64,000 bases of DNA. It comes from a virus. Taxonomy: Duplodnaviria > Caudoviricetes. This document shows, piece by piece, positions 2,698 through 2,787 of the stretch. Location of the stretch: positions 288,001-352,000 of IMG/VR virus record IMGVR_UViG_3300017700_000931. One strand, given 5' to 3'. The first letter of the stretch is position 1. Every line of letters begins with the position of its first letter. The notes under the pieces are model-generated. The model had not been told where the DNA came from, made no database searches, and saw only the letters and a list, made by a program, of their open reading frames with translations. Position numbers and translations under genes: made by a program.

Positions 2698-2787
2698 TGG
2701 CGATACTGTGAATCTAACACAGTTTTGCAAAAATTACAGAATCAGTATCTGTGTCATCTAGCCGTCCTAACATTAGACGATACCGCC
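2698..2787 (-). ncRNA. tRNA-like RNA, 90 nt, elongated anticodon arm, variant elbow
   Basis: Acceptor GGCGGTA/TATCGCC-A; D-arm GTCT-AATGTTA-GGAC; T-arm CTGTG-TTAGATT-CACAG; central ACAGA-TACTGAT-TCTGT hairpin on an extended stem. Confidence 0.65.

Follow-up and report, generated by a model that had tools for sequence, protein, structure and literature searches.

A tRNA-shaped RNA gene with an elongated, tRNA-Gln(CUG)-like anticodon arm and a compensatory elbow pair in a jumbo phage

The window analysed here, a stretch of 64,000 nucleotides, corresponds to positions 288001-352000 of G000, a complete 362,532-bp jumbo phage genome with terminal repeats (record L031 is the same strain). Its minus strand carries a tRNA-shaped RNA, hereafter A, followed by an untranslated stretch, two other tRNA-shaped RNAs (B and C), an HNH ORF and an RNA ligase gene (Table 1). 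A is missed by ARAGORN and by Rfam, where it does not reach the RF00005 gathering score, and no Rfam model matches it at E ≤ 10.

Besides a tmRNA and a Bacteroidales small-SRP-like RNA, the phage encodes 57 standard tRNAs, a Glu/Gln-type synthetase (GlnRS-type), a CCA-type nucleotidyltransferase, Thg1, RNase R and RNA ligases. The SRP-like RNA and the shape of the promoter suggest that its host probably belongs to the Bacteroidota. Long variable arms are common in the class I tRNAs (Thr, Met, Cys, Asn, Ile, Gln and Lys) of this phage group. Elsewhere in the window, a tRNA(CAU) (8163-8237, +) is almost identical to G000:56544-56618, from which it differs by two T-stem bases, and looks like a recent duplicate located far from the tRNA arrays. 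The window also includes a DUF805b RNA (Rfam; 11909-11944, +) and a 58-nt tRNA-like gene devoid of anticodon arm (23813-23870, +). A single low-identity tblastn pair near G000 234323 (-) points to a frame change or to a split gene.

Table 1. Location of A, of its parts and of the other features discussed (window positions unless a record is named)
Feature	Position	Strand	Remarks
tRNA-shaped RNA A, 90 nt, elongated anticodon arm	2698-2787	-	read 2787→2698
Acceptor stem of A, 5' strand	2781-2787	-	7 bp, pairs with 2699-2705; G1:C72, G2:C71, C3:G70
D arm of A	2764-2778	-	4-bp stem, loop AAUGUUA; G18 at 2771, U19 at 2770
10-nt insert of A	2753-2762	-	between positions 26 and 27
tRNA-Gln(CUG)-type anticodon stem-loop of A	2736-2752	-	A33 at 2746, CUG at 2745-2743
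9-nt insert of A	2727-2735	-	between positions 43 and 44
T arm of A	2706-2722	-	5-bp stem, loop UUAGAUU; A56 at 2715
Discriminator A73 of A	2698	-
Candidate Bacteroidota-type promoter	3294-3325	-	TTTG, 20 nt, TAnnTTTG; about 500 nt upstream of A
boxA-like motif	2679-2687	-	11 nt downstream of A
tRNA-shaped RNA B	2084-2184	-	canonical T loop, enlarged central arm
tRNA-shaped RNA C	1824-1953	-	branched central domain, encoded CCA
Free-standing HNH ORF	958-1335		precedes and overlaps the ligase
RNA ligase, PF09414	3-977	-	downstream of A, same strand; runs off the window
Full tmRNA	G000:73052-73435	-
Bacteroidales small-SRP-like RNA	G000:24793-24898	-	52.1 bits, just under the gathering cut-off of 55.2
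Class I tRNAs with long variable arms	G000 14758, 32304, 33331, 56292, 56919; L007, L171, L234, L235
RNAs sharing one acceptor shell	L398:1472-1561 compared with L413:3564-3646; also L213, L255, L401	- (L398), + (L413)
tRNA-like gene with A19:U56	G000:30581-30653 (in L035)	-	irregular anticodon loop; second elbow swap in the same genome
Otherwise standard tRNAs with a swapped elbow	L232, L235, L236 (record G005); L007:2846-2917; L191:15936-16007

The motif that follows A, which we take to be boxA-like from the consensus assumed for it, is also found 22-23 nt before the tRNA genes heading two tRNA arrays (G000 58032 and 15954, both on the minus strand). The candidate promoter was likewise scored by what we take to be the Bacteroidota consensus. 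Upstream of A lies a mobile 62-aa ORF whose relatives are found without the RNA. In B, an anticodon-like hairpin is capped by a palindromic loop of 6 nt, and the same is seen in a tRNA-like RNA of the relative G028 (L124:15398-15528). A hammerhead considered in C was rejected, its core being incomplete. The RNA ligase carries an HNH-like N-terminal motif set and has more than 3000 close relatives, some of which neighbour the genes of a CCA enzyme and of Pth2 (L148).

All 21 canonical stem pairs of A are intact. Two bases (U8 and C9) link the acceptor and D stems, G26 follows the D arm, 40 nt then lead to the T stem, and the T arm includes G53:C61, U54, U55 and A58. The two inserts enclose an inner hairpin of 5 bp and 7 nt whose pairs are predicted with probabilities of 0.89-0.97; the 5' insert pairs weakly with the 3' one or, alternatively, with bases 8-14. 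The folding z-score of A is -2.83 relative to shuffles and its cloverleaf descriptor score is 32, with no match of 29 or more in 1.09 Mb of shuffled genome. The original prediction of a tRNA-like module with an extended central arm and an inner hairpin is thus borne out, on the minus strand, and U19 and A56 lie where it had placed them in the D loop (AATGTTA) and the T loop (TTAGATT).

The core of A is not fully canonical, given A15·A48, a non-standard combination found in 2 of 112 standard phage tRNAs and at variance with the R15:Y48 Levitt pair. The conserved positions off consensus are 19, 33, 48 and 56, A33 being rare (3/143 phage tRNAs). The missing CCA is normal for this phage, because the ACAA trailer of A is shared with 17 other tRNA-type genes; it is the commonest trailer among the real tRNAs of the phage, most of which lack an encoded CCA. 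A 7-bp match between the hairpin and the 3' strand of A was set aside, since about 0.25 such matches are expected by chance.

The hairpin points to the ancestry of A. Among 443 tRNAs, it matches the anticodon arm of tRNA-Gln(CUG) at 16 of 17 positions (A33 replacing U33) and that of the next isotype at 12 of 17, a ranking that is partly circular since the comparison set was enriched for Gln by a hypothesis-based pattern. Unlike this ranking, the existence of natural tRNAs that match A at 35 of the 38 positions from base 5 to 43, insert left out, is not circular. Furthermore, a pattern joining the D arm of A with its hairpin is found in at least 120 bacterial genomes, and the matches examined are ordinary tRNA-Gln(CUG). 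On these comparisons, A is a tRNA-Gln(CUG) body with 10 nt added at 26/27 and 9 nt at 43/44. It keeps G10 and the anticodon determinants of Gln identity (Y34, U35, G36, A37 and U38), whereas in the acceptor G2-C71 alone is kept, U1-A72, G3-C70 and G73 being absent (Gln determinants are taken from PMC9976931). Since C3-G70 and A73 are found in the Gln(UUG) tRNAs of the phage as well, the telling loss is that of 1:72.

One true homolog of A was found (L392:167-256, IMG/VR contig 3300042691_036629; 81.9 bits, E 1e-19), in a phage fragment that is 62% complete and has 8 of 252 tested ORFs in common with G000. The successful pattern was blind to positions 19, 33 and 56 but required an insert; 1 of its 21 matches was true and the other 20 lacked a cloverleaf. 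Exact patterns built on the 5' end of A, or on its three loops together, retrieved no homolog from viral and metagenome contigs, nor did blastn against the phage records or inspection of the loci of relatives of the ligase and of the upstream ORF. Covariance models, DNA searches and nhmmer revealed no copy of A in about 100 phage records reached via capsid and ligase. Patterns designed for B and C found no homologs of these neighbours.

The two copies align without gaps and are identical at 65 of 90 positions, very unevenly distributed. Identity reaches 17/18 at positions 8-26, 10/10 in the 5' insert, 15/17 in the hairpin and 8/9 in the 3' insert (33/36 for inserts and hairpin together), as against 2/7 in the 5' strand of the acceptor and 8/17 in the T arm. 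Both copies carry the two inserts and A33, and in neither does a 17-nt anticodon arm with U33 directly follow position 26. In this alignment, the codon-side arm is fixed and the amino-acid side is free, acceptor and T stem varying without loss of pairing, whereas a charged tRNA would need the opposite. Recent transfer between shells could account in part for the high identity of the centre; the acceptor of the homolog may also have been exchanged, because it resembles the shell common to other tRNA-like RNAs of its own phage. The homolog passes the RF00005 gathering score (40.3 bits) and has the Levitt pair, as A15:U48.

The original prediction regarded U19:A56 as a compensatory replacement of G19:C56 and proposed to look for 19/56 covariation in homologs. 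In L392, the single homolog, the pair is G19:C56; both bases have changed together and, as far as sequence tells, pairing is Watson-Crick in both copies, which amounts to one covariation event between two sequences. Position 19 is the sole difference in columns 7-35, i.e. 29 consecutive bases on the D-arm side. Columns 7-61 contain four changes, namely U19, two that together make up a compensated pair and one more. The joint probability that four random changes in these columns would produce U19 as well as a compensated helix pair is about 2e-4. Globally, nine pairs are altered on both sides with pairing kept, including 19:56 and the basal pair of the hairpin (A:U in A, U:A in the homolog). 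The acceptor is 7/7 paired in both copies, with four of its pairs altered on both sides, and 98% of cells are paired in the alignment, versus 36-48% when it is slid. Compared without inserts with real tRNA-Gln(CUG), the homolog is identical at 61/71 positions and A at 53/71 (best other isotypes, 43 and 39). Because the homolog is so close to bacterial tRNA-Gln(CUG), its G19:C56 is, on this comparison, the ancestral state and U19:A56 the derived one. Origin of U19 by deletion of a G from an 8-nt D loop, as in the phage's tRNA-Glu, is possible; the 7-nt loop of the homolog makes substitution simpler. Judged by these two copies, A is a genuine RNA gene under selection and belongs to an uncatalogued family with two members.

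Like A, the homolog lies among non-standard tRNA-shaped RNAs, next to ORFs that are not common to the locus of A. No ligase is found near it, so the linkage of A with the ligase is not conserved. In the phage group of the homolog, at least nine non-standard tRNA-shaped RNAs from four phage records share one acceptor shell. Furthermore, a near-identical strain (L413, flank 96.7% identical) carries a different tRNA-shaped RNA in the slot of the homolog, and the switch of content falls inside the shared acceptor start. These tRNA-shaped RNAs apparently behave as exchangeable cassettes.

These data lead us to regard A as probably a functional, non-decoding tRNA-shaped RNA derived from tRNA-Gln(CUG), in other words a Gln mimic. 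The L-shaped top half of a tRNA suffices for RNase P action, CCA addition and stability, and the elbow platform is what RNase P reads. A would be transcribed together with the neighbouring RNA cluster, excised by RNase P and a 3' nuclease and then provided with CCA by the phage CCA-type enzyme, steps that would need the elbow platform and the acceptor shape but not their sequence. With its 19 extra nucleotides and A33, A would be kept out of the ribosomal A site and its anticodon would be out of register for charging. Indeed, normal A-site decoding and joint reading of anticodon and acceptor by GlnRS appear incompatible with A, because of A33 and of the 9-10 or so extra nucleotides on each strand. 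Presented on a stable scaffold, the Gln anticodon arm of A could instead make it a decoy, or a ligand that cannot be charged, for a protein that recognises tRNA-Gln, candidate targets being an anti-phage anticodon nuclease or GlnRS. This is the most likely job for A and is a conjecture, plausible while falling short of probable. It is proposed because hosts deploy anticodon nucleases against phages (PMC10264068) and because mascRNA, a cloverleaf processed like a tRNA, binds GlnRS while uncharged (PMC9976931). The different RNA in the slot of the homolog in a close strain is as expected of variable conflict loci. A quadruplet or recoding tRNA was also considered and rejected, since among the genes with homologs no gene that needs frameshift or readthrough is evident.

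It is unlikely that A is an odd but decoding tRNA-Gln(CUG), whose inserts would bulge out to form an enlarged D loop and a variable arm, whose anticodon arm would stack as usual and which the phage GlnRS would charge. The GlnRS-type enzyme and the long variable arms frequent in class I tRNAs of the clade would suit such a tRNA, as would the fact that A has the only CUG hairpin accompanied by a T loop in the genome, where a standard tRNA-Gln(CUG) is absent. However, A33 is invariant, A lies outside the Gln/Pro tRNA array, CAG codons are scarce in the phage (208 versus 2153 CAA) and no Gln acceptor identity is kept, 1:72 (G:C in A, A:U in the homolog) and 3:70 both differing between the copies. 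An alternative D stem (8-14 with 28-34), predicted to be near-isoenergetic in both copies (26% and 40% of the ensemble), leaves some room for decoding because the hairpin could then lie beside a D stem.

It is also improbable that the tRNA shell is mainly a processing or recombination module, supplying RNase P punctuation and repeats for cassette exchange around a centre with little role in trans. Dispensable for processing, the centre is the best conserved part and has its own compensatory pair, and no boxA-like motif follows the homolog. These observations outweigh the position of A at the head of a non-coding RNA cluster with such a motif after it, the single acceptor sequence of so many RNAs within which strains switch content, and the reading of the elbow by RNase P.

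An intron-containing pre-tRNA seems very improbable. The original prediction had suggested, as a weaker alternative, a tRNA-Val(GAC) with an intron at 37/38; taking out 19 nt there does yield a 71-nt cloverleaf, the phage encodes RNA ligases and the "enigmatic introns" of Lak megaphage tRNAs (PMC6784885) offer a formal precedent only. This suggestion does not stand up to the data: position "37" is a U in the homolog, where it covaries as part of the hairpin, and the spliced product would carry A32 (4/143 tRNAs) and a U·U mismatch in the anticodon stem. The Val determinants G3-C70 and U4-A69 are absent from both copies, A73 being all that is present of the Val set, and an intact tRNA-Val(GAC) is located at G000 32227-32298. 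No bulge-helix-bulge is visible and the insert is not long enough to be a group I intron, while a Gln version would need two excisions and still have A33.

Decay of a tRNA into a pseudogene with a coincidental match of U19 and A56, which would fit the four conserved positions off consensus, the absence of A from the other phage records searched and the presence in the genome of two other tRNA-like genes with an uncompensated A56 without U19, is scarcely credible and is largely refuted by the homolog, since the same inserts and A33 recur with compensatory changes in a distant phage and since neutral-decay simulations with four conserved positions hit give P ≤ 0.03 for all 21 stem pairs staying intact and P of about 0.024 for a Watson-Crick 19:56 swap. 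The claim that the L-shaped fold is under selection rather than decaying is supported by these values, by the nine compensated pairs and by the restriction of D-arm-side change to position 19.

The 19:56 swap is not new in itself, as it has a precedent in tRNA-Pyl and recurs in related phages. Among 200 distinct tRNA-shaped genes of these phages, 182 have G:C at 19:56, 8 have one base changed and 10 have both changed; in the last group, 8 are Watson-Crick (6 A:U, 1 C:G and 1 U:A). All 117 bacterial controls have G19:C56, and the Fisher value of 2e-11 exaggerates the contrast, the sequences not being independent and position 19 being assigned by rule. A19:U56 or C19:G56 also occurs in otherwise standard tRNAs (Arg, Val, Trp, Ala, Cys and Met). 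Two related tRNA-shaped RNAs with an enlarged D region, G000:70414-70511 (-) and L148:2738-2834 (+), differ at position 56, where one has A and the other has C.

The elbow swap alone is modest and precedented, yet it provides a clean natural covariation from G19:C56 to U19:A56 in one RNA family. A more general, tentative and rather doubtful view is that giant phages keep cassettes of tRNA-shaped RNAs as an anti-defence arsenal, in which A would be a dedicated tRNA-Gln(CUG) decoy, prevented by A33 and its longer arm from acting on the ribosome. It would titrate or inhibit a Gln-specific anticodon nuclease, or else modulate GlnRS, the swap keeping it processable. Standard annotators miss genes such as A, and a 90-nt RNA whose parent tRNA is still readable gives a handle on the role of non-decoding phage tRNA look-alikes.

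Among known systems, bacterial tRNA-Gln(CUG) (RF00005; L266, L349) shares with A the D arm, 16/17 positions of the anticodon stem-loop, G10 and the five anticodon determinants. It differs from A, which has the 10- and 9-nt inserts, A33, U19:A56 and A15·A48 and lacks U1-A72, G3-C70 and G73. A bacterial Y RNA (Yrl) associated with Ro60/Rsr was rejected, as no Rfam model matches A at E ≤ 10 and no TROVE gene is adjacent; the sole Ro60-type candidate protein (DUF2828/DUF7788) is encoded 210 kb away. The T loop of tRNA-Pyl is presumably the same 7-nt loop as that of A. In tRNA-Pyl, U19:A56 forms a tertiary Watson-Crick pair in a working tRNA (PMC5758916). However, A is not a tRNA-Pyl: it has no CUA anticodon, it has two bases and not a single one between acceptor and D stems, its D arm is normal and its ancestry is different.

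The Lak megaphage tRNAs (PMC6784885) resemble A in being oversized tRNA genes of Bacteroidota-type giant phages with highly conserved extra sequence. In A, by contrast, the extra sequence lies on either side of an intact anticodon-like hairpin, and a single 37/38 intron is hard to reconcile with the covariation. As for mascRNA, it is eukaryotic, its anticodon arm is reduced whereas that of A is lengthened, and its origin is unrelated, so that the likeness is one of analogy only. The T4 species 1/2 RNAs (rnaC and rnaD; NC_000866 70908-71171), whose function is unknown (PMC9697503), are phage non-coding RNAs located, like A, near tRNA-type genes. A resembles them in its tRNA-like ends and in combining a T arm with enlarged arms, as rnaC does with its canonical T arm, a likeness in architecture only; A differs from both in keeping a recognisable Gln anticodon arm and a D arm of normal size, and blastn on the phage collection detected no sequence similarity between them. 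A may be seen as a non-homologous RNA that would work like the tRNA-shaped RNAs of the T4 species 1/2 type.
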